Shown here: in pieces, positions 12,439 through 34,516 of the stretch | Numbering within the stretch: position 1 is the stretch's first letter | Layout: the number at the start of each line of letters is the position of its first letter | Assembly (NCBI GenBank): GCA_028714495.1 | Contig: JAQTMH010000003.1 | Span: 72,496 to 136,495 of the forward strand | From: Patescibacteria group bacterium | GTDB lineage: Bacteria; Patescibacteriota; Patescibacteriia; JAHIZJ01 | Direction: 5' to 3' | Length of the DNA: 64,000 bases | Notes under the pieces: model-generated | The model's input: the letters and a program-made list of their open reading frames with translations, nothing else | Databases searched by the model: none | Told to the model about the DNA's origin: nothing | Program-made: the position numbers and the translations under genes

Positions 12439-12441
12439 AGT

Positions 12442-12826: not shown

Positions 12827-12856
12827 TACTCAATATATTGTCTACTCAAAACGATA

Positions 12857-14733: not shown

Positions 14734-14817
14734 ATTACTATAAATAATTGGCTATTCGCTTTTATATATGAAATTTACCACGCTATCAATATTTTTTCAA
14801 ATTATCAAAGCACTCGT

Positions 14818-14846: not shown

Positions 14847-14854
14847 ATTTATAT

Positions 14855-15648: not shown

Positions 15649-15658
15649 ATAGGCTACC

Positions 15659-15690
15659 ACAAAACTCCGTGTTATCCACGGAGTTTTGAT
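15659..15690. terminator. Bidirectional terminator hairpin between the convergent zupT and giant-protein genes
   Basis: aaaactccgtg-ttatc-cacggagtttt, flanked by T-rich sequence. Confidence 0.55.
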
Positions 15691-15709
15691 ATTTTCTATT
15701 CTCAAGTTT

Positions 15710-18700
15710 CTAATTTGCCGCGGTCGTGACCTGAACCCCGCCGCGGAATGTCTCGGCATAGGCCATAAACCAGTCTGAAGTCTCTAAGACGCCATTTGTC
15801 AGATTCAGCATTCTGACATTTGGGCCGCCGCCAGAAAGGGGCGAGATAACTATTTCAGACATTTGGTCCGCGTCAATATCAGCCAGTAAAACGTCTAATT
15901 TGGACCTAATAGCTTCACCATAGACCAGCGACCAATCAATTAGTCCGAGGTTCGAGGTTGTGGCGCTGTATTCATAAATCCGGAGGTTGGTTCCAGTCGC
16001 GCTATTTGGTGTTACAATTAAATCTTCGTAATTATCGCCATCAAGATAGCCGGCTGTCACATTGACTCCGCCGCGGAAAGTCTCGGCATAGGCCATAAAC
16101 CAGTCAACCAGACTAAATCCCGCGGTGGCCATGTCGTAGGCATACGTTCTGACGTTTGGGCCGCCGGAAACTGGGACAGTAACAATTTCATCAAGACCGT
16201 CGGCATTGATATCGGCCAGGGTTACCTTGACCCCATCACGGTACGTTTCCTGGTAAGCCATAAACCAATCAGCCAAACTGAATTCCTGAGTAGTCGAACT
16301 GTATTGATAGACGCGGACATTGGGACCGCCTTGGCCAACCGGAGATAACACAACCTCCAGCTTGGAATCGCCCATGACATTGCCAATTGCCAAGTTCACT
16401 CCGCCATTGAATTTCTCGCCATAAGCCATAAACCAATCAACCAGGGTCAAACCTTCAGCCGCGCTCTGGTATTTGTAGACCCGGACATTTGAACCGCCCT
16501 TTTCAGCCGGGACAGTAATAATCTCATCTCGTCCATCTCGATCAATATCAGCAGTTTCCACATTCAATTGTCCACGAAAACCTTCGTTGTAAGCCATTAT
16601 CCAGTCAAGCAAATGCAATTCCCTTGAACCGGTTAGGTAATTATAGACCCGGAGATTCGAACCACCGCCGCTTTTTGGCAAGACCACCAATTCATCACTG
16701 CCATCGGCATTTACATCAGCTGCCTCAACCGTGATTCCATTCTTAAACGCTTCCTGATAGGCAAAGACCTGAGAGATGAATTCACCACTTAGATTGAACA
16801 CCCGGATATGAGGGCTGAATTCCTTGTCTGGATAAGCGATAATTTCATCAGCGCCGTCGCCATTTAAATCAGCGGTTAAAACGTCAAATTTGCCGCGGAG
16901 ATTTTCATTGAAGGCGAAGAACGAAGCAGACACTTCCCCATTCGTGCCAAAGACACGAACTTGAGGACTGCCGTTTTCCGGTACAGTCACAATCTTTTCG
17001 CTGGCCTTGGTCGGTCGGAAAGCTACGGTTCGTGAAATGTCTGTTGAATCACTGTCTGTCTCAGCTGTAACTACCAAGGTATTATATCCCTTTTTCAAGC
17101 CAACAATCATAGCCGAGAAGCTTCCGGTCGAACCAACTGTTAAACTGGTATCAACACCATTCAATTGCGCTGTTACTTCAGCGGTGGCATCAGAAACGGT
17201 CCCGCTGACTGACACTGAATCAGTCGAGGCAACACTATTGTCCGTCGGGCTGGAAAGTGTTAGTTCGAGACCTTCCTCTTCCTGTTCAAGATCAGCGTTT
17301 TGCTTGTTTGTGACTAGGGCAAAATTGGTGAAATGATCTACCAAGAACGAGACAGTGTCATTATCTTTATCAACCGTGACATTATTCACCGTTTTCCAGG
17401 TTCCAGAGGTCTCGTCATAATACCTCGGCGCGATATCATCTTCAGTTATGCCCAGGGCGTCTAACTGCGCGTGAGTGTAGGGAATAGTAATTGTAACATT
17501 TGCCTGAAACGAGGTGATCAATTGATTTTGTGAATCTTTTGCTGTTAAGTCATATGCTAAGGCAATTGGTTTTGACGTAGCCGTAGAAGGCACGCCTTGG
17601 CCTTTTGGCGTGGCTGTCACTGTCACATCGCCGCTGGTATCTAGACTGTAGGCTGGCATATCGATTGTAGTTCCGTCCAATAATTGCATAGTTTTCGATT
17701 CAGTCGAATCAAACGTGGCTGTTTGAGCCGGTGGAATCGTAATGTCCGATTCGATCAAGGCCAAGTCTTGAGCAGCTGTGCCGCTATCAGGAACGGCAAC
17801 ATTAATTTCGTCACTTCGATAAAATTTAGTCACAGTTTCATAAGTGGCGCTGACATGCCAGGCCTGGTTTTTAATAATGTTCAGGCTGTAAGTACCATCA
17901 GAGCTTGCCGTGGTTTCCGAAAAAGCTCCATCCTCTGACCAGGCATTGATATAAGAATTGGCCATTGGTTGATCGTCCAGACTAACTGTGCCGGTAATCG
18001 TGCCATCGGCCTGCCTGAATTGCATTGTCACTTCAGCTGGACTTGAAGGACTTGTCGCCACCGCTTGTGCTTGGGGATAAATATACCCCTGATCTGTTGG
18101 CATTGAGGCTGAAACAAAATAATTTCCCTCTGGCACAGTAACCGAGAAATGACCATTGACATCAGAAATATTCCCCTGATTAAACATCGGACCAAAGAAT
18201 GAATCTGTCGTCGAGCTTCGACCGCCAAGTTCAGTATCAACTGAAACCCAGGCGTTGGACAGAGGCTGGCCGTTTGGATCCAGAATCGTACCACTAACAA
18301 CTGAATCAGCCTTCAGCATGGTTATATTGTGCGTTACCGTGCCATTGGCAATGGCTGTTATGGTGTTATCTTCTCCAAACGAGCTTATATATCCAGAAGC
18401 TGGATCTACCCAATAGCCGATATTCCAATCACCCGCGGCTACAGTTAAGGTGTATGTTCCATTTATAAATTGCGTCCATTGCTGACCGCCTGTACCATTA
18501 TTGGCAAATACTTCTCCCCAGACACTGTTTATCGGATTGCCGTCGCGGTCGAGCAACGAGCCGGAAATTGTGGCGTTGTTTGGCAGAAGCGTTATCACTG
18601 TTCCTTCATGGGTTTCACCCGTGCCAACGGTAACCGTGGCTTCGGCTGAAGGCGTGTAATTAGAGCTCGGGGGCATAAAGAGTCCGATTTGGTAGGTGCC

Positions 18701-20368
18701 GGCTGGCACTTTCAGACTGAAAGCTCCGTTCTCCACCATACCGCCAAGGTCACAGTATCCCATCATATCTCCTTCGGCGCTGACCGAGCGATTTACATCC
18801 CTGGCATAGGCATAGCTACTCAGAGTGTCGAGAGTACTGCCTTCATTGTCCTGGACAGTTCCACTGATAGTAGCGTCTGCAATGGTGAACGTAAAGTCCA
18901 TAGATTCCGTCTCATTGTCGCCAACTACTACCCTTTGGGGCGCCTGGGTTTTCACATAGGTTGTTTGGCCGCTATTCGAAGGGAAAGAGTCGACAAACCA
19001 GGTACCCGCCACTAAGCTTAGGGAATAATTGCCTAAACTGTCTGTTTGAGTATTTCCATAGCCAGAACCGAACATTTGCCAGGCATTTACAAATTCATTA
19101 GCCAATGGATTGCCAACGCTATCAGTAACCTGGCCGGTTATATGGGCGGTTTTTTCTAATAAATATATTGTGCCAATATTCTTCGTCTCCTGGTTGCCTA
19201 TTGGTATTGATGGCACTTCCGGCCCGCCATAATCGTTGCTATTTACCTGGATATTTATCATAAAGGTGCCGTTTGAGGGAACGCCAAGACTGAAATACCC
19301 TTGGGCATCAGCCTGAGTGCTGCCTCCGCCGCCAAAACCGCCCGCGCTCCAGGCATTGATGTTTACTGAATTCGGTGTTGGAATACTGCCGTCTGGATTA
19401 AGCACGCGTCCGGTAATCGTTGAATCGAATACCGTTACCACAAAATCAGCTGTCGCGGTTTCTGCCACGCTGTTGGCTTGGGTAAATGACACGCTGGTTG
19501 GCATGTCGAAATAGCCCCAGTCAGGCGCCCCGCCCTGTCCCCACGATGGCGATAGCATCACTTGAAAATTTCCCCGTCCGATTAACATACTATATCGGCC
19601 ATTTTGATCTGTTTGGTCTTGAGCAAAACCAGATGTCCCATCCATGGAAAAAGCGTTTACCATGGCATCGGTAACTAAGCTCCCGTCCGGTTTTGTGATT
19701 GTTCCCTGGATTGTTTTCATAGCCGCTTCTAGCTGGATCGGCGTAGTGAGATAGTCTGTGTTGGTTGAGCCAGCGGTCACAGTGACCGCCAGACCGATCG
19801 TAGATAGAATTCCATAATCGCTGAAAGACGGATTAATATCTAGATAGTATGTTCCAGATGCCAAATCGGATCCGATTCGAAAATTTCCTGACGTATCAGT
19901 ATTAGCATTTTCAAAATACGTATAAGTGGCATCGCGCAACTGGATACTAGCCGACTGGGCTGGTAAGCTATTCGGATTCAATACGGTTCCCTTGACCCCT
20001 GGCACCACCAAAGCAAGGTTAAGCGTTACCGGCGTACCCGAGTAAGTAAAGCTTGACGCCGGTGGACTTACCTCATCAGGATCGTTTACCCAAACCGTAG
20101 CGTAATATGTGCCGGACTGGGTCAGGGTCGTTTGAATCTGTCCATTCGAATCAGTATATCCATAGTAATAAAATGTGTAGTTGCTTGAATTAATTGCTAC
20201 GCCGGCGCCGGATACGGGTGTGACTTCGTCTGATTTTGTAATCGTTACGGTTAGATTTTCTCCTTCGGCTCTCGCGTATTGCAGGCCGTTTAGGGAATAA
20301 GGTCCTATTAAAACAAGGACTGTCAAAAAAACCATCAGTGTTTTCGCAATTTTTCGATTTGATTTCAT
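15710..20368 (-). CDS. Giant (1552 aa) secreted or surface repeat protein. It has an N-terminal signal peptide, many carboxypeptidase-regulatory-like / Ig-like beta-sandwich repeats, and a C-terminal array of about 8 FG-GAP/VCBS-like beta-propeller repeats.
   Basis: MKSNRKIAKTLMVFLTVLVLIG signal. Repeated ...GTV.D..G.P...A.V... units. C-terminal repeats carry DLNGDGADEII / ADVNADGSDELVV / ADIDRDGRDEIITVP and DWFMAY..F.GG motifs. Confidence 0.75.
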   Translation of the reverse strand: MKSNRKIAKTLMVFLTVLVLIGPYSLNGLQYARAEGENLTVTITKSDEVTPVSGAGVAINSSNYTFYYYGYTDSNGQIQTTLTQSGTYYATVWVNDPDEVSPPASSFTYSGTPVTLNLALVVPGVKGTVLNPNSLPAQSASIQLRDATYTYFENANTDTSGNFRIGSDLASGTYYLDINPSFSDYGILSTIGLAVTVTAGSTNTDYLTTPIQLEAAMKTIQGTITKPDGSLVTDAMVNAFSMDGTSGFAQDQTDQNGRYSMLIGRGNFQVMLSPSWGQGGAPDWGYFDMPTSVSFTQANSVAETATADFVVTVFDSTITGRVLNPDGSIPTPNSVNINAWSAGGFGGGGSTQADAQGYFSLGVPSNGTFMINIQVNSNDYGGPEVPSIPIGNQETKNIGTIYLLEKTAHITGQVTDSVGNPLANEFVNAWQMFGSGYGNTQTDSLGNYSLSLVAGTWFVDSFPSNSGQTTYVKTQAPQRVVVGDNETESMDFTFTIADATISGTVQDNEGSTLDTLSSYAYARDVNRSVSAEGDMMGYCDLGGMVENGAFSLKVPAGTYQIGLFMPPSSNYTPSAEATVTVGTGETHEGTVITLLPNNATISGSLLDRDGNPINSVWGEVFANNGTGGQQWTQFINGTYTLTVAAGDWNIGYWVDPASGYISSFGEDNTITAIANGTVTHNITMLKADSVVSGTILDPNGQPLSNAWVSVDTELGGRSSTTDSFFGPMFNQGNISDVNGHFSVTVPEGNYFVSASMPTDQGYIYPQAQAVATSPSSPAEVTMQFRQADGTITGTVSLDDQPMANSYINAWSEDGAFSETTASSDGTYSLNIIKNQAWHVSATYETVTKFYRSDEINVAVPDSGTAAQDLALIESDITIPPAQTATFDSTESKTMQLLDGTTIDMPAYSLDTSGDVTVTATPKGQGVPSTATSKPIALAYDLTAKDSQNQLITSFQANVTITIPYTHAQLDALGITEDDIAPRYYDETSGTWKTVNNVTVDKDNDTVSFLVDHFTNFALVTNKQNADLEQEEEGLELTLSSPTDNSVASTDSVSVSGTVSDATAEVTAQLNGVDTSLTVGSTGSFSAMIVGLKKGYNTLVVTAETDSDSTDISRTVAFRPTKASEKIVTVPENGSPQVRVFGTNGEVSASFFAFNENLRGKFDVLTADLNGDGADEIIAYPDKEFSPHIRVFNLSGEFISQVFAYQEAFKNGITVEAADVNADGSDELVVLPKSGGGSNLRVYNYLTGSRELHLLDWIMAYNEGFRGQLNVETADIDRDGRDEIITVPAEKGGSNVRVYKYQSAAEGLTLVDWFMAYGEKFNGGVNLAIGNVMGDSKLEVVLSPVGQGGPNVRVYQYSSTTQEFSLADWFMAYQETYRDGVKVTLADINADGLDEIVTVPVSGGPNVRTYAYDMATAGFSLVDWFMAYAETFRGGVNVTAGYLDGDNYEDLIVTPNSATGTNLRIYEYSATTSNLGLIDWSLVYGEAIRSKLDVLLADIDADQMSEIVISPLSGGGPNVRMLNLTNGVLETSDWFMAYAETFRGGVQVTTAAN

Positions 20369-20644
20369 TTTTTTATTGTTATTTTTTTATATATAAAAAA
20401 CCGTTTACTTTAAAACGGCTATTTCAAACCACTGAATATAATTGAAGAAAGTCCTTTTTTAACCCCTCCATTTTGATTTTGTCTTTGCTTTTTATATTCT
20501 TACATCTTTATTATACTCCCAAAACAGCGTTTTGTCAATAGTTTAGTCATAATTATTCAAACATTAGTTCTGGTTAATATTCACTTATTATTCATTTTCC
20601 TGTATAATACTTTTAGGCGTAATCATTAACCAAATTCAAAACGC

Positions 20645-21100
20645 ATGAAATCAAAAACAGCCTTAATGGCAATCCTGGTCACTTCTTTGGCCGGCGTCAT
20701 CTATTCAGGCTACCTCACCTATAATAACTACTGGGGTGGCGGATGCGAGAAAGCGATTGTAAGTTGCAGCGGCGGCGGACAGCCAGTAGAGATTTTTGGA
20801 CTGCCAACGTGTGTTTACGGTTTCTTTATGTTTCTAATTGTAGCCATTCTCTCGATCATTGGCCTGGGCCAGGATAAAAAAACCTATCTCAAATCAATTT
20901 TCGTTATTTCACTTATCGGCACCCTCTTTGCCCTTGGCGTAACAATATACGAAATGTGGATAATGGAAAATCCAGCGACAACCCTGCCAGCTTGCGCTTA
21001 TGGATTTTTCATATATCTAATCGCCTTAATCTTCGCTTCACTTGGTTTCCGTGGAATGAAGACGACTCCTCCGGCAGTCATCACTCCGCCGCAAGTATAA
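20645..21100 (+). CDS. Small 4-TM integral membrane protein with a Cys-containing loop (GGGCEKAIVSCSGGG) and an internally duplicated LP(T/A)C(V/A)YGFF motif. TM1 looks VKOR-like but there is no CXXC.
   Basis: 151 aa. TM1 ...SGYLTYNNY is reminiscent of the VKOR family, but the catalytic CXXC is absent. Confidence 0.4.
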   Translation: MKSKTALMAILVTSLAGVIYSGYLTYNNYWGGGCEKAIVSCSGGGQPVEIFGLPTCVYGFFMFLIVAILSIIGLGQDKKTYLKSIFVISLIGTLFALGVTIYEMWIMENPATTLPACAYGFFIYLIALIFASLGFRGMKTTPPAVITPPQV

Positions 21101-21117
21101 ACTTGGCAGATATAATC

Positions 21118-21150
21118 AAAAGAGGACATCGAATGTCCTCTTTTGTTGTT
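21118..21150. terminator. Bidirectional terminator hairpin
   Basis: aagaggacat-cga-atgtcctctt with flanking T-runs. Confidence 0.5.
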
Positions 21151-21180
21151 ATAAAACTTTTTTGAACCTTTCCGAAAAAA

Positions 21181-21927
21181 TCACAACTGGCTCGGAGACA
21201 AAGGTTCCAATGGGATCGGCGTGCCTTCGGGTGCGTATTCGATCTTCGTGCCAGCCGGCCAGATAAACTGCACGTCCTCCGGCATTGAGAGATCGAGGTA
21301 GATATCCGCGCCACTGACCTTCATATTTGTCAGATTCGATGCGTCGCTGAAATTCGCCGTGTGCGTGCCAGTAACTGACTTTATATAATTAATCGAACCC
21401 TGGTTCGCGCCGTAGTTAAGCGTGTCGCTGCCGCAAACCCAGTTCCCCGGCTCGCCTGTGACAGTCTCATGAACAGTACCGCTTGGTTTGGCTGGTCCTT
21501 TGCTGGGCAGATCATTCGGTCCAACTTCGAGATCAGTGAGATTGAGATCAATCCAGCCATCAATATAAACAACCTGGTCTTTAGTTGTGTTACAGCCGCT
21601 ACCGATTAAAATTTGGGATGAGCTTTGGACCTGGCTGAAATAAATCTTCCAAGGCACGAAATACGCGTTGTTCTTTATTGTTTCAGCTTCAGGCACTGGC
21701 CGGCCGACAATGTATGTAGTTGTGGCTACACCGCCCGAGACAACTGGCGGAGTCGACCCTCGATAAAAGATTACGTAGTCGGTTCGATCAGTTATACCCG
21801 CTCCCTGATTCTGACTTCCGCTGTTAGCTGATTTATTGTCATTTGACGTATCCGTTTTTTTAGCACAGCCAGTCAAAATCAAAAAAAACACCAAACAAAT
21901 GGCTACTAAGGTGGTTCTTTTTAGCAT
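21181..21927 (-). CDS. Lipoprotein (lipobox LTGC) with a low-complexity N/S/Q linker
   Basis: MLKRTTLVAICLVFFLILTGCAKK... Confidence 0.6.
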   Translation of the reverse strand: MLKRTTLVAICLVFFLILTGCAKKTDTSNDNKSANSGSQNQGAGITDRTDYVIFYRGSTPPVVSGGVATTTYIVGRPVPEAETIKNNAYFVPWKIYFSQVQSSSQILIGSGCNTTKDQVVYIDGWIDLNLTDLEVGPNDLPSKGPAKPSGTVHETVTGEPGNWVCGSDTLNYGANQGSINYIKSVTGTHTANFSDASNLTNMKVSGADIYLDLSMPEDVQFIWPAGTKIEYAPEGTPIPLEPLSPSQL

Positions 21928-21981
21928 AGCTTAAATATTTAATACTAATAAATAATCTTCATCCGCCAGTTAAATACGGAG

Positions 21982-22779
21982 TTACTCGCTCACCGTGATT
22001 GGCACTGATTGAGCTTCAACTCCGTTCAAGTAAATTTTCATGCTGTACTCGCCCGGAGTCGAGGGCAAACTGAAACAGCAGGAACCGTTGGTGCTGTTTC
22101 CAGCCTGGAGTTGGCTTTCTGGTCCTACGGCCTCAACCACGTTACCGGCGCTGTCGACAATAGCGCGGGAATATTTATCGTTGGCTGTAAAATTTCCAAT
22201 AACACCTATGCCATACAGGTCGCCGACCTCGAATGTGTTTGTCACTTCCATATTGACGTTCGGTGAAAACGTGGTGCCAGCTGGCAGACGCTGGAGCTCT
22301 ACTCTTGTAATTCCGGTAGTGGACGCGTTAGTGTTGGTATTTGCGCTAGCCGGATTTAAATTGACAACGTTTACGGTGATGCTGCCGCACTCGCGATCCT
22401 TACATGTCAGCTGATAGGTTCCACCTGGATCAGTGTTGTTGATTGATGTGCTGAACGTACCGCTAGTGGATACCGCGCCAGTGCCTTTAAATTCAAAGTC
22501 GACTGGCTGGTCATCGCTGGCCAACGTTACCCGAACGATATCTCCGGCATAAAAAGTCATAGTGGTGTAATTAAACCTGTCGTTTACCAGCTTAAGCGTA
22601 AAGACTTTTGTATTGCCAGACATAGTAAAAGGCGCCTCTCCACCAATTGCGTTTGTATTACTATTTGTGTTCGCGTTGTTTGTATTTACATTGTCAGTGC
22701 TTTTTTTCTTTTGCCCACAGCCGGACAATATTAAAACCAACATCAAGAAAAGGGCAATGAATGTGGCTTTCTTTCGCAT
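21982..22779 (-). CDS. Lipoprotein (lipobox LSGC) with an N/T-rich linker
   Basis: MRKKATFIALFLMLVLILSGCGQKK...NTNNANTNSNTN. Confidence 0.6.
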   Translation of the reverse strand: MRKKATFIALFLMLVLILSGCGQKKKSTDNVNTNNANTNSNTNAIGGEAPFTMSGNTKVFTLKLVNDRFNYTTMTFYAGDIVRVTLASDDQPVDFEFKGTGAVSTSGTFSTSINNTDPGGTYQLTCKDRECGSITVNVVNLNPASANTNTNASTTGITRVELQRLPAGTTFSPNVNMEVTNTFEVGDLYGIGVIGNFTANDKYSRAIVDSAGNVVEAVGPESQLQAGNSTNGSCCFSLPSTPGEYSMKIYLNGVEAQSVPITVSE

Positions 22780-22992
22780 TTTATTAAAGTTATTTATTAA
22801 ACTCCAGCTACATTATATCACAATTTTTCAATTCAATAAAACCGTGTCGCCAGAACAAAATACAGAAATCCGCAATTATTTGAAGTGATATAATTAACCT
22901 AACAATATTACCGGGGAATATTATTAACCTTTTAGTTAAAAGGTTTACTTGATTATTGTATCAGAAAATCACCAGGCTAGCGATTTTATTAT

Positions 22993-23021
22993 TAAAAAAG
23001 ATACGAGATTGCTCTCGTATC
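22993..23021 (-). terminator. Rho-independent terminator ending the GC-rich operon
   Basis: gatacgaga-ttgc-tctcgtatc, followed on the minus strand by TTTTTT. Confidence 0.5.
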
Positions 23022-23031: not shown

Positions 23032-23937
23032 TTAGAGACTAGGCCGGGTGTCTCGGAGATATTCCATGAAGTACTGGGCATCTCGAGTACAACCCTTGGG
23101 CAGTCGTGGAACATCGCGGCACAGCACTGGCCGACCCGAGCATTCGCCCACTGCCTGCCAGAGCTTGATGCTCTGATCCAGCACAAACCTGGAAAAATCA
23201 ATCACGCAGTCAGTCGGAATCGAAGCGCCGCTGATCGGATCGCCGAACGGCAGGCAATACGGCAAAGCCACTTCTGGCTCGCACGGAATCACCTGGCTAT
23301 CAACCCGACGACCTGCGGTCCTCCCGGATAAAGGAACGCCGACATAAAAGTCCCGCTCGCAGACCCAATCAACTACAGCTGGGTACTCGCGCACACCGAC
23401 CAGCTCCACCCATGGATGCTTGGCCAGAAGCTGGTTTTCCGGCCGGCCAATGATTATCCCGACGATGACTTGACTGACCACATAGCCATTTTCCCGCATT
23501 AGTTCGGTTATCCGAAGCAGGGTGCCGCCTGAATAGCAACCGTCGTCAACCAGTGAAATCGGACGACCCTTGGGTAAAGATCTGATTTGGTCAACTAATG
23601 ACTCGAAGCCGGCACGACGCGATTCGCCTAGAATCTGGGTCGTGCTGATATCAGCCACGCGGTTGCACTCCAGATGATAGGGCGTCTGGTTGTAGATCTG
23701 GTCGATCGAGACAACGATCGTTCCGGCGGCTCGGGCAGCAATCGCGGCTTGCAGTTTTCCGCTCAAATCAGCCAGTTCGATAAGTTCAAGCGGCCGAAAG
23801 ATCGTTCGCAGATAGCCAAGCAGCTCCTGCTGGAGGGTCCGGAAAAAGTCCGAACTCGGACAGCTGAAGCCAACACGCTCGGCCCATCTGCGCATGAGGA
23901 ATTCCAGATCCTCGGTTACGAGGTAGGGTGGCTTCAT
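23032..23937 (-). CDS. Type-I phosphoribosyltransferase-like protein (PRPP-binding motif) with N- and C-terminal extensions. GC-rich.
   Basis: PISLVDDGCYSGGTLLRI matches the VLLVDD..TGGT PRPP loop. 301 aa. About 58% GC. 4-bp overlap with the upstream gene. Confidence 0.5.
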   Translation of the reverse strand: MKPPYLVTEDLEFLMRRWAERVGFSCPSSDFFRTLQQELLGYLRTIFRPLELIELADLSGKLQAAIAARAAGTIVVSIDQIYNQTPYHLECNRVADISTTQILGESRRAGFESLVDQIRSLPKGRPISLVDDGCYSGGTLLRITELMRENGYVVSQVIVGIIIGRPENQLLAKHPWVELVGVREYPAVVDWVCERDFYVGVPLSGRTAGRRVDSQVIPCEPEVALPYCLPFGDPISGASIPTDCVIDFSRFVLDQSIKLWQAVGECSGRPVLCRDVPRLPKGCTRDAQYFMEYLRDTRPSL

Positions 23938-24773
23938 GCTCTCCTCCTTTTCCCTAAGGGTTTCGTGGAAATCCGCTGTAGGATTTCCAGAGCTCCAGCT
24001 GTGATCGGCTCCGTAGCCACAAAGTCAGCGACCGCCTGTAATTCAGCGGCAGCATTGCTGACAGCGCAAAGTAGGTCTACATGTCCTAAGAGCCTGGCGT
24101 CGCTCCTGCCATCGCCAATGGCGATCACCCTGTATCCACGATACTTCCGCCGTAGCACGGGAACGGCAAGCTCTTTGTCTAACCCGGCACTTGATAGAAT
24201 CAGCACACCACATTCAGCATTGGCATCGATGTCCACCAACTCGGTTATTCCCAGTCTATCGAGAACCACTTTCACGGTCCCGACCACGCTGGGATAAGCT
24301 CCATAATCAGGAGTCAGCTGGTTTGTCCAGACATGCAGGCCAAAGCCACAGAGACGGAATGGATTGATGACAATCATCGTGCCTGACCGCGCATCTAGCC
24401 CGCGTTGGTTCGACAGGAGATCAAGGTAGTATTCCTCAGTCAGGGCGAAGTCTGGAAAAGCGCTCCGGAGTGAAGATATAATCAGCTGCTTGACCGAATG
24501 CCAGCCGATTACCTGCTGTCGAGTAAGTAGGTGACTGCCGGACAGCGTCGAGACAATGGCTCCTTTTTCACTGACGATCGGACCGGTAAAACCGAATATC
24601 CCCATCCAGCGCCGAAGCGGCTCATACGGAGTATCCGAGTTTAGCCCGAAAAGATCGCCCGCCTCCATCATCTGTCGAACCAATAGTTTGAACGCGTCTA
24701 GCTGGATTGTCGGCTGATAATCCCGACCGATAAGACTCATGTCGAGATCGCAGAGAATCAGTCTGGGTCTCAT
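23934..24773 (-). CDS. HAD-superfamily phosphatase (HAD-IIB / Cof-like). GC-rich.
   Basis: LILCDLDMSL (DxD motif I), IAIGDGRSDARLL (motif IV). 279 aa. Confidence 0.65.
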   Translation of the reverse strand: MRPRLILCDLDMSLIGRDYQPTIQLDAFKLLVRQMMEAGDLFGLNSDTPYEPLRRWMGIFGFTGPIVSEKGAIVSTLSGSHLLTRQQVIGWHSVKQLIISSLRSAFPDFALTEEYYLDLLSNQRGLDARSGTMIVINPFRLCGFGLHVWTNQLTPDYGAYPSVVGTVKVVLDRLGITELVDIDANAECGVLILSSAGLDKELAVPVLRRKYRGYRVIAIGDGRSDARLLGHVDLLCAVSNAAAELQAVADFVATEPITAGALEILQRISTKPLGKRRRA

Positions 24774-25783
24774 ATGGCCACCTCAGCCAGCGAAGAGATT
24801 AGGCGACCGGCCTGTTCCTGCATGGCTTCGATCAGCCAGACCCGTTCAGGATCTAGACAATAGTCACAACGGCAGGCGGCATAGGCACTGTAGTAGACCG
24901 CGCAGCACAATTCATAGAGCTGAGGCGTAAATATCCCCGCCTCAATCATCAGTTGCCGTGCCCTTTTGATTCTGCGCAAGGCGCCAAGATGGAATACAGA
25001 TCCCACAGTCTTTCTGATCTCCAATTCCTTGCGTCTGAGCGAGGCTTCGAGAGCGGCTAGGTCAACTGCGATGTTTCCGTCCGCCAAGCGCTCTTTGGAC
25101 CAAGGCAACGCCATCTTCGGGTCAATGAATCTGACCCGTGGCTGGTCAAGCGATTCGCTAACCAGCACATTGATAGCGACATTATCTTTCAGCGCCATCG
25201 AAGAAGACCAGCGTTCGAAAAACCAGGGAAAACGCTTTTGCAGCCGATCCAGCGCTGGGTTCAATCCGGTCATTTTCGCCCTTTCCAGATTTACCCGAAA
25301 CGCGCTCAGGCATTCCTGGAAAAACGTCTCTTGATCGTCTTGATTGCCGCGACTGGTCAAACTGTAGATCATTCTCAGCTTGTCAATCACCTGGCCGACG
25401 ATGTTGCCGATCTGAGATTGGCGTCGCTGGATGATTGGATGGTGACACGGCAGTGTTTCAAGCCATTCGCACAGGTCCAGGCAAATCGCCTCAAGCGTCC
25501 GTTCCCCCGCCACTTCCAGAAACAGCACTCCTTGATCATCCGTTTGGTTGACGAGTCGAAAATCAGGCAGAAACTCACCATATCGATCACCCAGCCGTGC
25601 CTGAAGAGTCCGATAAGCAGCCACATCGCCATTCAAGATGTCCAGCCGGCCGGCCTTCACCACGCCCCGGACCAGAAATGTGTCAGCGCCAGAAGCACCC
25701 TCTTGCCTGTCAAATGTCATCAAGCTGACTGCCGCTGATGCCGAACCAATCAAACCCTGCTTTGCTAAACCCAAGAATTCCAT
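24770..25783 (-). CDS. Hypothetical protein, possibly a small-molecule kinase of the APH/choline-kinase fold (weak). GC-rich.
   Basis: ALKDNVAINVL (D-x4-N), RFIDPKMA...DLAALE, reminiscent of the HGDxxxxN / IDxE.A / DLA motifs. RBS GGAGGGGAG. 337 aa. Confidence 0.35.
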   Translation of the reverse strand: MEFLGLAKQGLIGSASAAVSLMTFDRQEGASGADTFLVRGVVKAGRLDILNGDVAAYRTLQARLGDRYGEFLPDFRLVNQTDDQGVLFLEVAGERTLEAICLDLCEWLETLPCHHPIIQRRQSQIGNIVGQVIDKLRMIYSLTSRGNQDDQETFFQECLSAFRVNLERAKMTGLNPALDRLQKRFPWFFERWSSSMALKDNVAINVLVSESLDQPRVRFIDPKMALPWSKERLADGNIAVDLAALEASLRRKELEIRKTVGSVFHLGALRRIKRARQLMIEAGIFTPQLYELCCAVYYSAYAACRCDYCLDPERVWLIEAMQEQAGRLISSLAEVAI

Positions 25784-27822: not shown

Positions 27823-27840
27823 TGGTTTGCTTTATTTATT

Positions 27841-28136
27841 AAAAAACTCTCATTCCTCGACAAGTTATTAAAAATAATAACTAGCTAAGGAACGAGAGTT
27901 TACTCCCGCGGTCCCATCCTTATTTCCGGTCTTTACCTTAAATCAGGCAACAACCAGACACTTATTTCAAGCTTCACGATGCGTGACCACCGTTCCCGGT
28001 TTTGACCGGGACTGCTTAAGAGGTGTGTTCAATGGTTTTCTGGGCCTGGCTTCCACTGTCCCAAGCTCTCTATTCAGCCAGAAATGGCCATTTACTATGC
28101 CTCTTTGTTAGCGCATTTGAATTAAATTATCAAGGT
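27841..28136 (-). promoter_or_regulatory. T-box riboswitch leader, His-specific (specifier CAC, antiterminator bulge UGGG), with its own promoter and an intrinsic terminator directly before the nucleoside phosphorylase gene
   Basis: Stem I UGGCUGAAUAGAGAGC... and specifier loop GAA-CAC-A are visible on the minus strand. The T-box sequence AAUAAGGAUGGGACCGCGGGAG is the reverse complement of 27907-27920. The terminator is AAACUCUCGUUCCU...AGGAAUGAGAGUUU plus U6 at 27841-27898, with UAGCUAGUUAUUAUUUUUAAUAACUUGUCG intervening. The antiterminator alternative is AAGGA[UGGGACC]GCGGGAG/CUCUC/UCCUU. The promoter is TTGACT, 18 nt, TAATCT. Confidence 0.75.
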
Positions 28137-28188: not shown

Positions 28189-28220
28189 AAAAAAAGCCGT
28201 TGAGCAAGTTACTCAACGGC
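28189..28220 (-). terminator. Rho-independent terminator of hisS, overlapping its stop codon
   Basis: gccgttgag-caagtta-ctcaacggc followed by U7 on the minus strand. Confidence 0.55.
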
Positions 28221-29600
28221 TTCAAGAAGTGAACGAATGTGCGAAATCAATTGGTCGCGCGGAACCGAGTGCTGTTTGCCTGCTGCGCCGAATGTGGTCC
28301 GGAGGTTCTTCACGGAAGCTTCGCCTCGGCTGAGCTCATCAGGACCGACCACGATCGCGATCGGTATCCGCTGAACATCGGCGTATTTGAACTGACGGCC
28401 GATGCGCGTTTCCTCACCCATGTAGAGCTCAGTATTCAGGCCCTCTCGTCTAAGCTCCGTGGCCAGCTGCTGGTAGACACCCAACTGGTTTTGATCAAAG
28501 ACGGTGACCAGAACCTGGGTTTTGCTAGGCGCTGTTCCAACCAAGCCGAGCTGTTCCAGGGCGGCGAAGAGCCGATCTACGCCGATCGAAGCACCGGTAG
28601 CAGGAATGCTGGTTTCGCTGAACCGGCCGATAAGTCCATCAAACCGTCCGCCGGAAAACACGCTGCCCCAGGTCGGCAAATCCAGAAGCCTCGTCTCAAA
28701 CACCGGACCGGTGTAGTAAGCCAGACCTCTGGCAATTGACAGGTCGATGATGAAACGCTCGGGCGGGATGCCTTGGGCTTTGAGTCCGGACAGAATCTGT
28801 TCCAGCTCGACGATCCCTTCGTCAACGGCCGAGCAGCCATTGAAGAAGCGCCTGAGCTGTTCGATCGTCTCAACCGGACTTCCTCCTGAAATGCCGACGA
28901 ATTCCATAATCCGATCAGCAATTTCCGGAGCCAAACCGATGCAGCGAGCACCGGCAGGTACTTCTCTCTGATCCACGCCTTCAGGCCCTTGCTTGGTCAG
29001 GGTGGCTTTGACTTCTTCGAGGCCGACTCTCTCGATCTTGTCTAGGGTCCGGAAGATGTCCGTGGCCCAGAAAGGATCGAGGCCCAAGAAAACCATCAAA
29101 GCGTTCAGGATCTTGCGGTTGCTGAAACGGATCAGGAAACGGGTAAGCCCCAGCTCAACCAAAGTGTCGTGGATGATGGCGATGATTTCAGTGTCAGCGG
29201 CCATTGAGCTGGTGCCGACAGTGTCAATGTCGAATTGCACGAATTCGCGGAAGCGTCCAGGTGCCGGTTCATCGCCGCGCCAGACCGGTCCGACCACGTA
29301 CCGTTTGAACGGTCGGGGCAGATCCGGGTACAGGGCGACAAACCGAGCCAGAGGTATGGTGTGATCGAAACGCAGTCCGGCTGGACGTCCTTCAGGATCA
29401 TCAAATCGGAAGATCTTAAGTTCGCTTGCATCAGTCTCTTCGCCGAGGAGAATCCTACGGTCTTCAATCGCCGGCGTCTCAATCGGTACAAAGCCATAGC
29501 GTTCATAAACGCGACGGATCTTCTCGATTAACGCTTGCCTGGCAATCATTTGAGCCGGCAGGTAATCTCGAAGTCCGCGCAGAAGTCGTGGTTCAATCAT
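28209..29600 (-). CDS. hisS: Histidyl-tRNA synthetase (class II). GC-rich. The start is taken at the internal Met so as not to overlap tRNA-His.
   Basis: RGLRDYLP, FREFVQFDID (motif 2), GGRFDGL, GASIGVDRL (motif 3), an anticodon-binding C-terminus. AGGTGA sits 10 nt upstream of ATG 29600. The ORF-track start at 29687 would overlap the tRNA. Confidence 0.85.
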   Translation of the reverse strand: MIEPRLLRGLRDYLPAQMIARQALIEKIRRVYERYGFVPIETPAIEDRRILLGEETDASELKIFRFDDPEGRPAGLRFDHTIPLARFVALYPDLPRPFKRYVVGPVWRGDEPAPGRFREFVQFDIDTVGTSSMAADTEIIAIIHDTLVELGLTRFLIRFSNRKILNALMVFLGLDPFWATDIFRTLDKIERVGLEEVKATLTKQGPEGVDQREVPAGARCIGLAPEIADRIMEFVGISGGSPVETIEQLRRFFNGCSAVDEGIVELEQILSGLKAQGIPPERFIIDLSIARGLAYYTGPVFETRLLDLPTWGSVFSGGRFDGLIGRFSETSIPATGASIGVDRLFAALEQLGLVGTAPSKTQVLVTVFDQNQLGVYQQLATELRREGLNTELYMGEETRIGRQFKYADVQRIPIAIVVGPDELSRGEASVKNLRTTFGAAGKQHSVPRDQLISHIRSLLEAVE

Positions 29601-29637
29601 CTTCTGATCACCTGCCTTTCTTGATACGCCAGAAAAG

Positions 29638-29716
29638 ATGGGGGGCCGGACGGGAATCGAACCCGCGACCTCTTGATCCACAGTCAAGCGCTCTGACCAA
29701 CTGAGCTACCGACCCC
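29638..29716 (-). tRNA. tRNA-His (anticodon GUG) with genomically encoded G-1, C73 and CCA
   Basis: GGGGGUCGGUAGCUCAGUUGGUCAGAGCGCUUGACUGUGGAUCAAGAGGUCGCGGGUUCGAUUCCCGUCCGGCCCCCCA. Cloverleaf checked by hand. G-1:C73. Confidence 0.9.
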
Positions 29717-29736
29717 CAACACCACGAAGAGCCAAA

Positions 29737-29812
29737 AGACTGGGGCGAGACGGGAATCGAACCCGCGACCTCTTGATCCACAGTCAAGCGCTCTGACCAA
29801 CTGAGCTACTCG
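29737..29812 (-). tRNA. Second tRNA with a GUG anticodon. Its 60-nt core is identical to tRNA-His but the acceptor stem differs (GGGCGAG/CUCGCCC). It keeps C73 but has C at -1 and no encoded CCA.
   Basis: CGGGCGAGUAGCUCAG...GGUUCGAUUCCCGUCUCGCCC-C. The interior is identical to the upstream tRNA-His. Confidence 0.7.
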
Positions 29813-29858
29813 CCCGTTTTCCCGGCCTGAGTTTGTAACAGACCGGGAACTTGTGCAC

Positions 29859-31478
29859 CTAGAGCGCCGCCGCAACCGCTTGCCGCAAAGCGCCGCTCTG
29901 GATCAGCTTCAACATCTTCTGATGGTCAGCCATGAGGAATCGATCATCATTCATCTCCTCGATGGCCGACCGGATCACCTGAAGGGCGACACTGGTACCG
30001 CGACCGAGCTTCGGATCATTGAGCGACTTCTGAGTCAGAGTAATGCCCTGGGCCGCTCCGATGAGCTCCCACGCGATCACCGCGAAAGCCAGCTCGATCA
30101 CCCGACGCATGTGCCGAGCCGAGATTGAAGCCATGCTGACATGATCTTCCTGGCCAGCTGAGGTCGGGATCGAAATCGCCTTGGCTGGATAGCACATTAC
30201 TGCGCATTCAGCGACTAGGGCAGCCACCGCGTATTGGGCAATCATTAGCCCGGTATTGAGGTCTGACTCACCAGCCAAATCAGCTGGCAAGCCATAGCTC
30301 GATTCCGGGTTCAGCAGAGCGTACAAACGAGAGTTCGAGATGTTAGCCAGGCACTGGGCGGCCAGTTTCATCTGCTCACTGGCATGCCCGAGCGGTTCTC
30401 CGTGGAAATTGCCACAAGACACTGCGACAAACTGCTCGCCAACTTGGAAGATCAGCGGATTGTCAGTCGCCGAGTTTGCCTCGATTGACAGAGCTTCCTT
30501 TGCCCGATCAATGATTTCTCTGACCGGGCCGGCCACTTGCGGATAGCACCGGTAAGAATAGGCGTCCTGAACGCGCGGCACCTTCAGATCATTCGGCTGA
30601 GACTTCACATGCTCAGCTGGCAAATCGACCAGTCGACAAGCATGGGTCATCCGCTCTGAACCAGCAGTCAGCTGACGAATCTCTGCTGCCACCTGGATCT
30701 GACCCGGATAGGGTCTGGCCAGGTGAACCCGTTCGTCAAACGCAGCTGTCTCACCGCGGATCGCTTCGAGCGAGAGCGCAGCTGCCAAATTCGAGTACCA
30801 AAGCAGAGACTCAAGGTCAGCCTGTCCCAGAATTGCCTGGGCCAGAATGAAAGTCGAACCATTGGTCAGAGCCATGGCTTCCTTGCCTTTGAGAACGATC
30901 GGCTGCAGATCAGCGGCAATCAGCGCATACTTGGCCGTCATGAATTCACCCTGATACCAGGCACGCTGTTCTTCCGATCCCATGAGCGTTGCCGAGACAT
31001 GCGCCAGTGGACAGAGATCGCCACTGGCACCGACTGAGCCGATCTGCGGAACATAGGGAATCACGCCGGCATTGTAGAGATTGACCAGACTCGCGCAGAG
31101 TTCAGGCCGTACGCCGGAATGCCCCTTGGCAAAGGAATTGGCCCGCAATACCAGTGCCAGTCTGACTACCTCGTCTGGGAACGGTTCGCCAAAACCAACG
31201 CAGTGAGCCGGAATGTAGTGCCTCTGATACGCGGTGATTTCTTCACCGGGAATCATGACGCACTTGCGACTGCCGCAGCCAGTGTTGAAACCATAGACCG
31301 CGTGATCTTGGCCGTAAGCGACCAGACCATCACGAAACTGACCAATCTCCTGCATTCTTTCCCCGGTGATTTCAACCCGGGGAAAAAGGTGAACGCCGGT
31401 AGCATCATCCTCACCCCGGGCTGCCAGAAGACAATCGGGCAAACCGAGATTTTCGCCATCGAGCCTGATATCGCGCAT
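29859..31478 (-). CDS. MIO-dependent aromatic amino acid ammonia-lyase / aminomutase family (HAL/PAL-like). GC-rich.
   Basis: GSVGASGDLCPLAHV (the Ala-Ser-Gly MIO triad), YGFNTGCG, NPLIFQVGEQ. The start is at the internal Met preceded by AAAGGAGA. The position equivalent to the HAL Ser-His selectivity pair reads Ala-His. Confidence 0.7.
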   Translation of the reverse strand: MRDIRLDGENLGLPDCLLAARGEDDATGVHLFPRVEITGERMQEIGQFRDGLVAYGQDHAVYGFNTGCGSRKCVMIPGEEITAYQRHYIPAHCVGFGEPFPDEVVRLALVLRANSFAKGHSGVRPELCASLVNLYNAGVIPYVPQIGSVGASGDLCPLAHVSATLMGSEEQRAWYQGEFMTAKYALIAADLQPIVLKGKEAMALTNGSTFILAQAILGQADLESLLWYSNLAAALSLEAIRGETAAFDERVHLARPYPGQIQVAAEIRQLTAGSERMTHACRLVDLPAEHVKSQPNDLKVPRVQDAYSYRCYPQVAGPVREIIDRAKEALSIEANSATDNPLIFQVGEQFVAVSCGNFHGEPLGHASEQMKLAAQCLANISNSRLYALLNPESSYGLPADLAGESDLNTGLMIAQYAVAALVAECAVMCYPAKAISIPTSAGQEDHVSMASISARHMRRVIELAFAVIAWELIGAAQGITLTQKSLNDPKLGRGTSVALQVIRSAIEEMNDDRFLMADHQKMLKLIQSGALRQAVAAAL

Positions 31479-31789
31479 GACCGTTTCTCCTTTTGTGAGA
31501 AGCCCGCGAGCGACTGGTTTCGTTCTAGCAGTACGAGATTCCGTTCTCGGCCATAGACTGACCTCCTCGTGTTTGGATGGTTTGTTTGCGTAGTGGGTAA
31601 TTACAAGATAATCCTGCCCGCTTAACAAGCAAGATTATTGTCAATGTACTAGCTTTTCCAAGAATAACTCATCTTATCACGGGCCCAGAATCACTGTCAA
31701 TTAGCCCTTATGCACATAGCTTACTACATAATATTCTCAATAAAAAAGGCCGGGGGTTCATACACCCTGACAAAGTACTGGGTACGATA

Positions 31790-33257: not shown

Positions 33258-34289
33258 TTAGGAAAAACTTAACTCACCCGGATATACCCAAATTTCCTTG
33301 AAGTTTTTTAGAGGTATTAGATCGGATTTCACAACCTCATGATCCTGGTTTTTAATTTGCTCAAACTGCTTGGGCGATAGAATTCGGTCAATATAACCGT
33401 CTCCCCTCTTTTCTAACACGCCAAAACCGGTCCAGAATTTCGCTACTGAATTTGAGGTTGTGCCGATTGGAATGGAATTATACTTGGGTAGCGGCGTGGC
33501 GGATAAATCAACCTTGCCTAATCCGCGTATCGCTTCATGAACCCGGGATAACCGGCAATAACCGTCATGGGCAATCGGGCCCATTTTTATTTTCTCCTGC
33601 TTCTCGTTCTCGTTCAGCCGCTTCCAATCTTCAGCGCCTTGCCACTGCAGATTAAGATTGGACGTTGCCTCTCTTTTTTTCTTGCGTTCTTCAGGCCAAT
33701 CTTTATATTCTTGCTTTACTTTATCTATAAAAGGCTCAAGTTCGTCGAGATATTCTTTTTCATTAGGATAAAGCTCGGCAAACGATCTTAATTCCAGCTT
33801 GATATTTCCCGGCAAATGCTCCAGAAATTCACCAAGTAATTTATTAAACGATTGGCGGTAGATTAAACAGTCTTTTTCCGGTATATTGCTCTGTCGTTTC
33901 ATAATTGAGGGATGAGCTGCCCAGTAGGTCATGATTACTCCAGGCTCATAAGCCTGCACAATGAGAGTAATGTATTTCAACATATAGCAAATATTAAAAA
34001 ATTCCGCCCAATCAACCTCCGGGGAGGTCTCAAAACTCCAGAGTTTATACCCGCCGAAAAAATAGGTAGTATTAATCGGCAGATGTTTAGTCACCGCATA
34101 GTGGATAGATTCTTTCAGCTCTTTAACGTAATCTTCACCGACCTTCCATTTGCGGAATTTTTTTGACATGAGACAGCGATAAATAAATGCTTCTGGTCCG
34201 TTTTTATCCAAAAATTCCCGGTCCGCTGTTTGCGGTTCGGTTTTGGAAGAATTTACTTTTTGACTTTTTAAATAATCCTCGACGGTCAT
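33258..34289 (-). CDS. Hypothetical protein (about 343 aa). The ORF-track N-terminus overlaps tRNA-Gln, so the start is moved to the Met at 34289.
   Basis: MTVEDYLKSQ... No recognisable motifs. Confidence 0.45.
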   Translation of the reverse strand: MTVEDYLKSQKVNSSKTEPQTADREFLDKNGPEAFIYRCLMSKKFRKWKVGEDYVKELKESIHYAVTKHLPINTTYFFGGYKLWSFETSPEVDWAEFFNICYMLKYITLIVQAYEPGVIMTYWAAHPSIMKRQSNIPEKDCLIYRQSFNKLLGEFLEHLPGNIKLELRSFAELYPNEKEYLDELEPFIDKVKQEYKDWPEERKKKREATSNLNLQWQGAEDWKRLNENEKQEKIKMGPIAHDGYCRLSRVHEAIRGLGKVDLSATPLPKYNSIPIGTTSNSVAKFWTGFGVLEKRGDGYIDRILSPKQFEQIKNQDHEVVKSDLIPLKNFKEIWVYPGELSFS

Positions 34290-34323
34290 TTTCAAAAAAA
34301 GTCCTTTCAATATAGCGAGCTTA

Positions 34324-34394
34324 GCTCCGGGGCCTGGACTCGAACCAGGATACCCGCCTCCAAAGGGCGGTGTCCTACCATTAGACGACCCCGG
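34324..34394 (-). tRNA. tRNA-Gln (anticodon UUG)
   Basis: UCCGGGGUCGUCUAAUGGUAGGACACCGCCCUUUGGAGGCGGGUAUCCUGGUUCGAGUCCAGGCCCCGGAG. U1:A72, G73. Anticodon loop CUUUGGA. Confidence 0.85.
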
Positions 34395-34516
34395 AGCAAA
34401 ACTCATTATAAGTTTTTTATTTCTATCGCCTCGAAACGATAGCGCTGACATCCGACCTAATCAAAAAAGGGCGCATCAACCCTATCCTATCAAACATTCG
34501 CAAATATTTCAAATCC

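Follow-up and report, generated by a model that had tools for sequence, protein, structure and literature searches.

Here, we describe a GC-rich block of genes in a Patescibacteria group bacterium of the candidate phyla radiation (CPR). It lies within a 64,000-nucleotide stretch of contig JAQTMH010000003.1 (assembly GCA_028714495.1, positions 72,496 to 136,495), which we call the window and by whose own numbering all positions are given. The block (28189-31640) carries, on the minus strand, the gene of an ammonia-lyase of the 4-methylideneimidazole-5-one (MIO) type, two tRNA-His(GUG) genes, and hisS, the gene of histidyl-tRNA synthetase (HisRS); a histidine-specific T-box leader with its own operon follows directly downstream (table). 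A first-pass annotation, made from the sequence alone, had named the same four elements in the block, namely hisS, a canonical tRNA-His, a variant tRNA with a GUG anticodon, and the MIO enzyme, all of which are present. It had also proposed that they were acquired horizontally, by integration at tRNA-His or by bringing tRNA-His along. We consider it probable, short of certain, that the stretch is the core of a CPR histidine-handling locus, and that its MIO-tRNA-hisS cassette was replaced by exchange with CPR relatives of higher GC content. Each component belongs to a known kind; what is new is the presence of two tRNA-His types side by side, the switching of tRNA identity sets together with a HisRS loop, and the unusual cargo of the T-box.

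Table. Features of the GC-rich block and the adjoining T-box operon, in order of transcription.
Feature	Coordinates	Strand	Evidence and remarks
Sigma-70-like promoter upstream of the MIO gene	31671..31700	-	TTGACA, 18-nt spacer, TG, TAAGAT; 10 of 12 matches; predicted function
MIO gene 5' leader, ~190 nt	31479..31670	-	Hairpin 31608-31638 and upstream open reading frame 31525-31554
MIO-dependent ammonia-lyase, 539 aa, HutH-like	29859..31478	-	PF00221, E 2e-149
tRNA-His(GUG) copy A	29742..29815	-	74.4 bits vs Rfam tRNA; G1:C72, C73, C at -1 (29816), 3' trailer AGU
tRNA-His(GUG) copy B	29639..29716	-	72.1 bits vs Rfam tRNA; canonical bacterial form
hisS, histidyl-tRNA synthetase, 463 aa	28209..29600	-	TIGR00442, 356 bits vs cut-off 287
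Intrinsic terminator	28193..28223	-	14-bp stem and T run; extends over the hisS stop codon and closes the GC-rich unit
T-box leader	27840..28118	-	RF00230 match 27885-28118, 90.6 bits, E 2e-20; terminator hairpin and U tract
Family-I nucleoside phosphorylase (PNP), uridine-phosphorylase-like, 252 aa	27064..27822	-	PF01048, E 9e-41; first T-box gene; host-like GC
Xylose-isomerase-like TIM-barrel protein, 372 aa	25940..27058	-	PF01261, 30 bits, just under cut-off; host-like GC
Protein without assigned function, 337 aa	24770..25783	-	GC 0.536
HAD-IIB (Cof-type) phosphatase, 279 aa	23934..24773	-	PF08282, E 1e-9; GC 0.533
Divergent type I phosphoribosyltransferase P305, 301 aa	23032..23937	-	Last T-box operon gene; GC 0.562

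The core order of this locus is conserved. A MIO gene, one to three copies of tRNA-His, hisS, and the T-box follow one another in all eight of the other distinct related CPR loci examined (L003, L004, L005, L006, L007/L008, L009/L010, L091, and L092; the L092 contig stops before any T-box region). In L004 to L007 the cluster lies beside smpB and the transfer-messenger RNA (tmRNA) gene, which in the relatives directly precede the MIO gene, and three of these four loci also have argS and a GT4 gene downstream. The window contains smpB (10789-11241), the tmRNA gene (11247-11636), argS, and GT4 as well, displaced by a rearrangement of ~12 kb.

We show that the block is compositionally anomalous. 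Its GC content is 56.0%, against 47.3% in the rest of the window, and it ranks at the top of all segments of its size (3452 bp; mean 0.477, SD 0.020), ~4 SD above the mean. The earlier figure of ~58% was thus slightly high, and the description as GC-rich was right. The GC step is sharp and coincides with gene boundaries. hisS (GC 0.560) and the MIO gene (GC 0.567) have the same profile over the three codon positions (GC1 0.64-0.65, GC2 0.43-0.44, GC3 0.61), where host genes have a mean GC3 of 0.53 (SD 0.04). Synonymous codon usage is also deviant, with G statistics (41 degrees of freedom) of 118.5 for the MIO gene and 94.4 for hisS against 40-55 for window genes of similar size. The composition-normalised tetranucleotide correlation of the block with its own window is 0.51, against 0.69-0.92 for control pieces of 3.3 kb. 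The suspected discontinuity therefore does not dissolve into uniform composition once quantified: the block is both the GC maximum of the window and a tetranucleotide outlier. Its tetranucleotide correlation with GC-rich CPR loci is 0.65-0.71 for L173/L174 and 0.85 for L091.

A recent foreign island from outside the host lineage, integrated at tRNA-His or carrying it, with the second tRNA as a by-product of integration, would account for the sharp GC step at gene boundaries, the tandem tRNA-His genes, and the codon-usage and tetranucleotide deviations. It would also fit the HisRS, which is nominally nearer to Bacteroidota and Ignavibacteriota enzymes (~50% identity) than to those of other CPR (41-45%). 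Like tRNA-associated integrative islands, the window has a compositional break beside tRNA genes. It differs from them in every other respect that we compared. No integrase or transposase domain was found in the window's open reading frames (ORFs) of at least 150 aa scanned against Pfam (IleRS, ArgRS, and LepA, named from synteny or N-termini, were unscanned), in agreement with the first-pass annotation, which had seen no integrase. No att-like direct repeat flanks the block, the sole significant repeat being the tandem whole tRNAs at its center. The two tRNA genes are intact, and their place is the interior of the block rather than its edge. Where an island would be patchily present among close relatives, the same gene order is found in all eight other CPR loci, four of them at the same chromosomal position. 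Furthermore, a tRNA-His gene adjoins hisS in about half of ~170 loci of the window's HisRS family, in several phyla. From the synteny and this common linkage, we conclude that the tRNA-hisS linkage and the gene order are ancestral and bear no sign of integration.

Phylogeny gives the same answer. In a neighbour-joining (NJ) tree, the HisRS of the module loci form a clade (bootstrap 94) within which the window, L009, L091, and L003 are nested as a sub-clade (98). The module clade stands beside other CPR and Thermomicrobiales enzymes, outside the Bacteroidota and Acidobacteriota groups. Among the closest ~50 MIO hits, every source-named protein is from CPR/Patescibacteria. The window's HisRS and MIO proteins each have a 100% identical counterpart, annotated as 'Patescibacteria group bacterium', on a 203-kb contig, although an exact look-up of the HisRS gave no record. 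A foreign island is thus very unlikely, and integrase-mediated insertion from another phylum does not explain the GC-rich composition. Of the horizontal acquisition proposed at first, exchange among CPR relatives fits the data; an origin in a foreign phylum does not, since HisRS and MIO group with CPR, and the idea of integration at tRNA-His has to be given up.

The source is a metagenome-assembled genome, and an assembly chimera, in which the contig of a GC-rich organism was joined to a host contig at conserved tRNA/hisS sequence, would be helped by the 58 identical bases that the two tRNA copies share and by the assembly gap in the third tRNA copy of L003. Host-like sequence, however, lies on both sides of the block within one 203-kb contig. 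An independent Logan contig (L001) spans the junction of host-like and GC-rich sequence, running through FMN reductase, DUF2196, and the MIO gene, with an identical MIO protein. The independent assemblies of L009, L003, and L091 likewise join the GC-rich genes to an AT-rich T-box, with PNP next in L009 and L003. Because independent contigs span the junctions, we regard a chimera as extremely improbable.

High GC content is a property of the MIO-tRNA-hisS cassette in the window's sub-lineage (window, L009, L003, and L091). In L003, the block genes have a GC3 of 0.60 between flanks of 0.35-0.41; in L091 their GC3 is 0.65-0.70, and they are GC-rich in L009 too. The MIO and HisRS orthologues of L004-L007 are host-like in composition, so the proteins themselves do not need GC-rich genes. 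An EamA-like gene inside the block, functionally unrelated to the rest, is GC-rich in L003 and L091 and AT-rich in L006 and L007. The MIO proteins of the window, L003, L091, P0124, L173, and L174 form a clade with bootstrap 100, and the L173 and L174 genomes have a GC content of 0.57-0.58. The PNP of L173 and the HisRS of both L173 and L174 are outgroups, more distant than the versions of L004-L007. Finally, different parts of the locus have diverged at synonymous sites to different degrees. In the comparison of the window with its closest relative, L009, 52% of four-fold sites are identical in MIO and hisS, compared with 32% in PNP (Fisher P = 0.001; chance level 24%), which corresponds to Jukes-Cantor distances of ~0.76 and, for the adjacent PNP, ~1.8. 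This rate test took the place of a test for topological conflict. Raw identities, by which the window is closest to L003 in PNP and to L009 in HisRS, had suggested such a conflict, and NJ bootstrapping did not confirm it.

These data bear on a further explanation, vertical inheritance throughout, in which a persistent gene-specific force keeps MIO, hisS (and P305) GC-rich. That force might be amino-acid and codon constraints of these enzymes. It might also be gene conversion biased toward GC, at a locus that is prone to recombination and has conserved tRNA and hisS sequence as its anchor. In favor of this explanation, PNP, HisRS, and MIO give the same NJ topology for the sub-lineage. GC-richness is common to orthologues with 62-83% amino acid identity, and the window-L003 synonymous sites are near saturation. 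The window's GC excess lies mostly at the first and second codon positions, and MIO and HisRS are slightly GC-richer than PNP in L006 and L007 too. The host-like composition of the L004-L007 orthologues argues against it, however, as do the contrasting composition of the EamA-like gene, the match of the tetranucleotide signature to GC-rich CPR genomes, the uneven synonymous divergence, and the placement of L173 and L174 in the MIO clade when PNP puts L173 outside. We therefore hold vertical inheritance to be a serious alternative that is nonetheless rather unlikely.

Several observations weigh against exchange. The trees are distance-based NJ trees only, and they agree on (window, L009), L003; because there is no clear topological conflict within the sub-lineage, the case for exchange is built on rates and composition. 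Stronger codon constraint, and not a younger age, could be why the GC-rich genes have diverged less at synonymous sites. GC3 exceeds that of the host by only ~8 points, most of the excess being at positions 1 and 2, and GC-richness persists between orthologues whose synonymous sites are near saturation, which makes one old transfer followed by amelioration hard to reconcile with the data. Amelioration regressions (Muto-Osawa/Lawrence-Ochman) misfit even the host control genes and were dropped. The window-clade HisRS is unrelated to that of L173/L174 (39-46% identity), so a single L173-like donor would leave part of the block unexplained. Among GC-rich candidates, only L091, a 4.3-kb contig, has both genes. 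Co-transcription of the block, HAL activity, and charging of tRNA copy A are predictions from sequence. We infer the direction and timing of the exchange, and likewise the roles of the two tRNAs. On balance, cassette exchange with GC-richer CPR relatives remains the reading that we favor. It carries a caution for genome scanning: where GC content jumps sharply beside tRNA genes, the cause can be a conserved housekeeping cassette that relatives have exchanged, and not a mobile island.

G-1 of tRNA-His is among the most nearly universal tRNA identity marks. To our knowledge, most work on its loss concerns certain alpha-proteobacteria and a small number of eukaryotes. The two tRNA-His copies in the window differ in this mark. 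Copy B has the canonical bacterial form, with G-1 (29716) opposite C73 (29642) and an encoded CCA (29639-29641), and copy A encodes neither G-1 nor CCA. The copies are identical at positions 8-65 and differ at acceptor pairs 4-69, 5-68, and 6-67, where the changes are compensatory. Both types are kept throughout the sub-lineage: the window, L009, L003, and L091 all carry an A-type copy (no G-1, C73, no CCA), in the same position and duplicated in L003, as well as a B-type copy, which in the three relatives also lies directly upstream of hisS. No Thg1-like enzyme, which could add G-1 to copy A, was seen among the window ORFs scanned.

Other arrangements occur in relatives. L092 has a degraded tRNA-like remnant (~975-1040) at the position of copy A, upstream of an intact tRNA-His of the delta-G-1 type. 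This points to two copies as the ancestral state, from which copy A can disappear. The third tRNA-His copy of L003 is interrupted by an assembly gap of N. In L173 (17408-20908 of GCA_040960375.1, a GC-rich CPR genome), a single tRNA-His (C at -1, C73, CCA) stands between two tandem hisS genes that share 45% identity. The hisS pair is immediately preceded by genes for MIO, PNP, HAD, a LOG-like protein, and two P305-like proteins, with no T-box.

The window HisRS has the class II core (PF13393, residues 9-344) and the HGTP anticodon-binding domain (PF03129, residues 362-457), and HisZ models score far below their cut-offs. It belongs to a eukaryote/Bacteroidota-like family. Among named enzymes, those of Bacteroidota and Ignavibacteriota are nearest to it, and Rhodobacterales enzymes are 39-41% identical. 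Its best PDB matches are two bacterial entries, 3net and 6nhi, which the PDB table calls simply histidyl-tRNA synthetase/ligase, and the human cytoplasmic HisRS 4g84. Scanning genome contigs with this HisRS yielded only one close relative, L011, a second record of the L003 locus; in a scan of metagenome contigs, relatives reached at most 53% identity among the matches listed.

The motif-2 loop of the window HisRS is WRGDEPAPGRFREF. We compared this loop with tRNA type in hisS neighbourhoods of many phyla (survey loci L012-L172). Across 83 hisS-adjacent tRNA-His genes, the two shift together: tRNAs with U72/A73 almost always accompany a loop of the form R-x-[D/E]-K-P, and those with C72/C73 accompany R-G-[D/E]-[E/R/K]-P. 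The window sub-clade (window, L009, L003, and L091) has RGDEP with its C73 tRNAs, other CPR enzymes with C73 tRNAs have R-G-E-R, and nearly all enzymes beside U72/A73 tRNAs have RADKP or close variants (RKDKP in L007). The loop of Rhodobacterales enzymes, for which HisRS sequences alone were compared, is RNEKP. The U72/A73 type is the majority (~56 of the 83) and is found in Bacteroidota, Thermoanaerobaculia/Acidobacteriota, Planctomycetota, and CPR; examples of the full set lie beside hisS in L014 (5871-5945), L017 (5853-5929), and L021 (5877-5952). A system without G-1, with U72 and A73, thus appears to be widespread in these four groups. HisRS and tRNA-His apparently co-evolve as a pair in the window's CPR lineage.

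This identity set (no G-1, G1:U72, A73) has been characterised as the delta-G-1 pair of Caulobacter crescentus, an alpha-proteobacterium (Wang et al. 2007; Yuan et al. 2011, PMC3064791). That pair and the window share the same HisRS family. The sister loci L004, L005, L006, L007 (copy B), and L092 carry its full tRNA identity set, the window's sister loci having Lys in the HisRS loop where RGDEP has Glu, and in the CPR loci the acceptor-reading loop of HisRS likewise changes with the tRNA. The window itself differs. Its tRNAs have G1:C72 and C73, one with and one without an encoded G-1, so that neither is of the delta-G-1 type and two acceptor-end types occur in one operon; its loop, RGDEP, departs both from the delta-G-1 form (R-x-D/E-K-P) and from the R-G-E-R of other C73 enzymes. 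A comparable case is that of CPR whose TyrRS and TrpRS are archaeal-type, with tRNA identity to match (Mukai et al. 2017, PMC5370408), in which tRNA identity rules are likewise altered with the type of synthetase. Histidine enters that work only through the alpha-proteobacterial case; here, the variation occurs within one bacterial HisRS family and one CPR lineage. In the literature searched, we found no description of U72/A73 tRNA-His outside alpha-proteobacteria, and nothing on tRNA-His identity, HAL, or His T-boxes in CPR. The U72/A73 system co-varies with two positions of the HisRS motif-2 loop and can switch in both directions between close relatives. It offers a natural series for testing how a synthetase/tRNA pair alters its recognition rules without killing the cell.

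The MIO enzyme is most likely a histidine ammonia-lyase (HAL), a possibility that the first-pass annotation had raised. Its best NCBIfam models are those for HAL (NF006871, 477 bits; TIGR01225, 471 bits), the models for tyrosine/phenylalanine mutases and lyases (aminomutase, TAL, PAL) reach at most 303 bits, and its closest PDB relative is the Pseudomonas putida HAL 1gkm (2e-85). The MIO-forming Ala-Ser-Gly triad is present (GSVGASGDLCPLAH, aligned with GSVGASGDLAPLAH of P. putida HAL). In a phmmer alignment to 1gkm, all eight positions aligned with Y53, H83, N195, Q277, Y280, R283, F329, and E414 are identical; we take these to be the substrate and catalytic residues of HAL in P. putida numbering (1B8F/1GKM). 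The window enzyme thus shares all catalytic and imidazole-binding residues with HutH of hutH-hutU systems, and urocanase is encoded in the same cluster as MIO in the relatives L006 and L174. It differs from hut systems in scoring below the HutH equivalog cut-offs (539 bits for TIGR01225 and 524 for NF006871) and in its setting before tRNA-His and hisS, not in a hut operon with a HutC or HutP regulator; no hutU, hutI, or hutG lies in the 64-kb window.

The MIO gene has a varied history in related loci. L004 (8206-9795) and L007 (6157-7752) have a different MIO enzyme in the same position. Its place in the tree is among Firmicutes HAL (with Desulfosporosinus, bootstrap 98), and it shares only 37-42% identity with the CPR-type MIO, as if a foreign homologue had displaced the gene in situ. 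The MIO gene of L005 appears degraded, consisting of a 445-aa ORF without a Pfam hit and a 95-aa fragment.

Upstream of the MIO gene, a TTGACA...TAAGAT...GAAAAG block that includes the predicted promoter is kept in L003, L006, and L007. The leader may be a regulatory element. The arms of its hairpin are partly kept in L003, with G-U changes, and its upstream ORF has nine codons and a strong ribosome-binding site; conservation among aligned MIO leaders is confined to the promoter-proximal part, and the leader has no match in Rfam. With a promoter at one end, a terminator at the other, and no terminator-like element found between the two, the GC-rich block is probably one transcription unit. A further hairpin of 7 bp (TTCCCGG...CCGGGAA, 29819-29849, minus strand), with no U tract, lies between the MIO stop codon and tRNA copy A. 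Its equivalents are CCCGG/CCGGG in L003 (~9570-9600) and CCCAG/CTGGG in L091 (~1475-1500), a compensatory change, and it may have a role in processing or stability.

The T-box leader has the specifier GAA-CAC-A, which reads histidine, and a UGGG bulge. It has the defining parts of the class: a specifier loop in which a purine follows the codon, a T-box sequence whose bulge is UGGN, and mutually exclusive terminator and antiterminator folds. Its score falls just under the Rfam gathering score (90.6 vs 93 bits). Orthologous T-boxes score 87-101 bits, and those of L009 (96.3) and L091 (101.4) pass. GAACACA and AGGAUGGGACCGCGGGA are invariant in seven loci, and 29 of 68 predicted pairs show compensatory changes. 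The UGGG bulge is found in every locus, even beside A73 tRNAs. We had considered this anomalous and have toned that view down, as TBDB applies no discriminator matching to His T-boxes because C73 may pair with G-1. In Firmicutes, His-specific T-box regulons comprise hisS, the his operon, and histidine transporters (TBDB, PMC7778990). The window T-box shares with these the CAC specifier, the T-box sequence, and the alternative terminator/antiterminator; it differs in its CPR host, in lying downstream of hisS and not before it, and in its cargo of nucleoside phosphorylase, HAD phosphatase, and divergent phosphoribosyltransferase (PRT). The adjacent His T-box operon described earlier is thus real as regards the T-box, and it contains no histidine biosynthesis genes.

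The first gene of this operon encodes a PNP that is 66-80% identical among the module loci and scores below the cut-off of TIGR01718 (214 vs 280 bits). The TIM-barrel gene is found only in L003 (62% identity) among the loci tabulated for gene content. The 337-aa protein, with no Pfam or NCBIfam match, is 31% identical to a 317-aa protein that adjoins MIO in L174. A HAD phosphatase also follows PNP in L004, L006, and L007. The last product, P305, narrowly misses the PF00156 cut-off (26.1 vs 26.3 bits) and belongs to a family of 27 proteins, three of which carry source names (Patescibacteria, 'bacterium', and 'hypothetical protein'). Its phosphoribosyl pyrophosphate (PRPP) loop is ISLVDDGCYSGGTL. 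An AlphaFold2 model (pLDDT 94.8) matched the cores of OPRT, APRT, and XPRT in Foldseek with probability 1.0 and target-normalised TM-scores of 0.4-0.5 over about half of the protein. With its PRPP loop and the predicted core fold, P305 would be a type I PRT. Sequence searches on P305 and the 337-aa protein gave no functional assignment beyond this PRT core.

In L173 and L174, PNP, HAD, LOG, and PRT-like genes lie between MIO and hisS, without a T-box. In L005 (6370-10575), the orthologous His T-box controls a protein with CntK_N (histidine-racemase-like) and acetyltransferase parts, an M20 peptidase, and an MR_MLE epimerase, a cargo that lacks PNP, HAD, and PRT genes and suggests histidine salvage. 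Given the L005 cargo and the L173/L174 arrangement, the tie between the PNP/HAD/PRT genes and histidine is robust. A CPR His T-box over genes outside histidine biosynthesis, charging, and transport provides a lead on how amino-acid auxotrophs whose genomes are minimal respond to histidine starvation.

These parts suggest how the locus might work. One transcript, begun at the promoter near 31700 and ended by the terminator (28193-28223), would encode the HAL-like MIO enzyme, both tRNA-His, and HisRS, and the two tRNAs would be cut out of the MIO-hisS transcript. RNase P would leave G-1 on copy B because of its G-1:C73 pair (knowledge summarised in PMC3064791); copy A would mature without G-1 and would require CCA addition. 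On accumulation of uncharged tRNA-His, the T-box would antiterminate and the phosphorylase-phosphatase-PRT operon would be made, to which the window's version appears to have added the TIM-barrel and 337-aa proteins.

A broader reading, which we offer tentatively and think doubtful as a whole, is that of a lineage midway through a change of its tRNA-His identity rules. It would have two tRNA-His species of different function in one operon, a mobile HisRS-tRNA cassette, and a new histidine pathway governed by the T-box. Close CPR genomes would alternate between G-1:C73 and the delta-G-1 set (G1:U72/A73), with a matching HisRS loop, and the HisRS-tRNA cassette would move as a unit because the pair must stay compatible. 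Copy B would be a canonical substrate with encoded G-1 and CCA; copy A, without G-1 and with C73 free, could be the preferred ligand of the UGGG T-box, and the PRT/phosphatase/phosphorylase pathway would let auxotrophs obtain or spare histidine.

The window has other GC-rich patches outside the block. One (23032-25783) is the end of the T-box operon, its final three genes having a GC content of 0.53-0.56; P305 is GC-rich in L003 too. The other (6959-7456) is a plus-strand ORF of 165 aa that lies between GT4 and ileS (GC 0.564, codon-usage G 77.5). smpB and the tmRNA gene, ~12 kb from the His cluster (10789-23000) and on its other side, indicate local rearrangement. The spacer holds a 1552-aa surface protein, a MacB/FtsX-type ABC transporter, a VKOR-like protein, and two lipoprotein-like ORFs. 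On the far side of the block, a 397-aa ORF (33258-34451) overlaps tRNA-Gln (34324-34395). Because it runs over this tRNA, its true start must lie downstream, and the shortened protein of 347 aa has no Pfam hit. L003/L011 (CAZQLY010000001.1) is labelled Gammaproteobacteria; its gene content and closest relatives are CPR-like, and the label is probably wrong.

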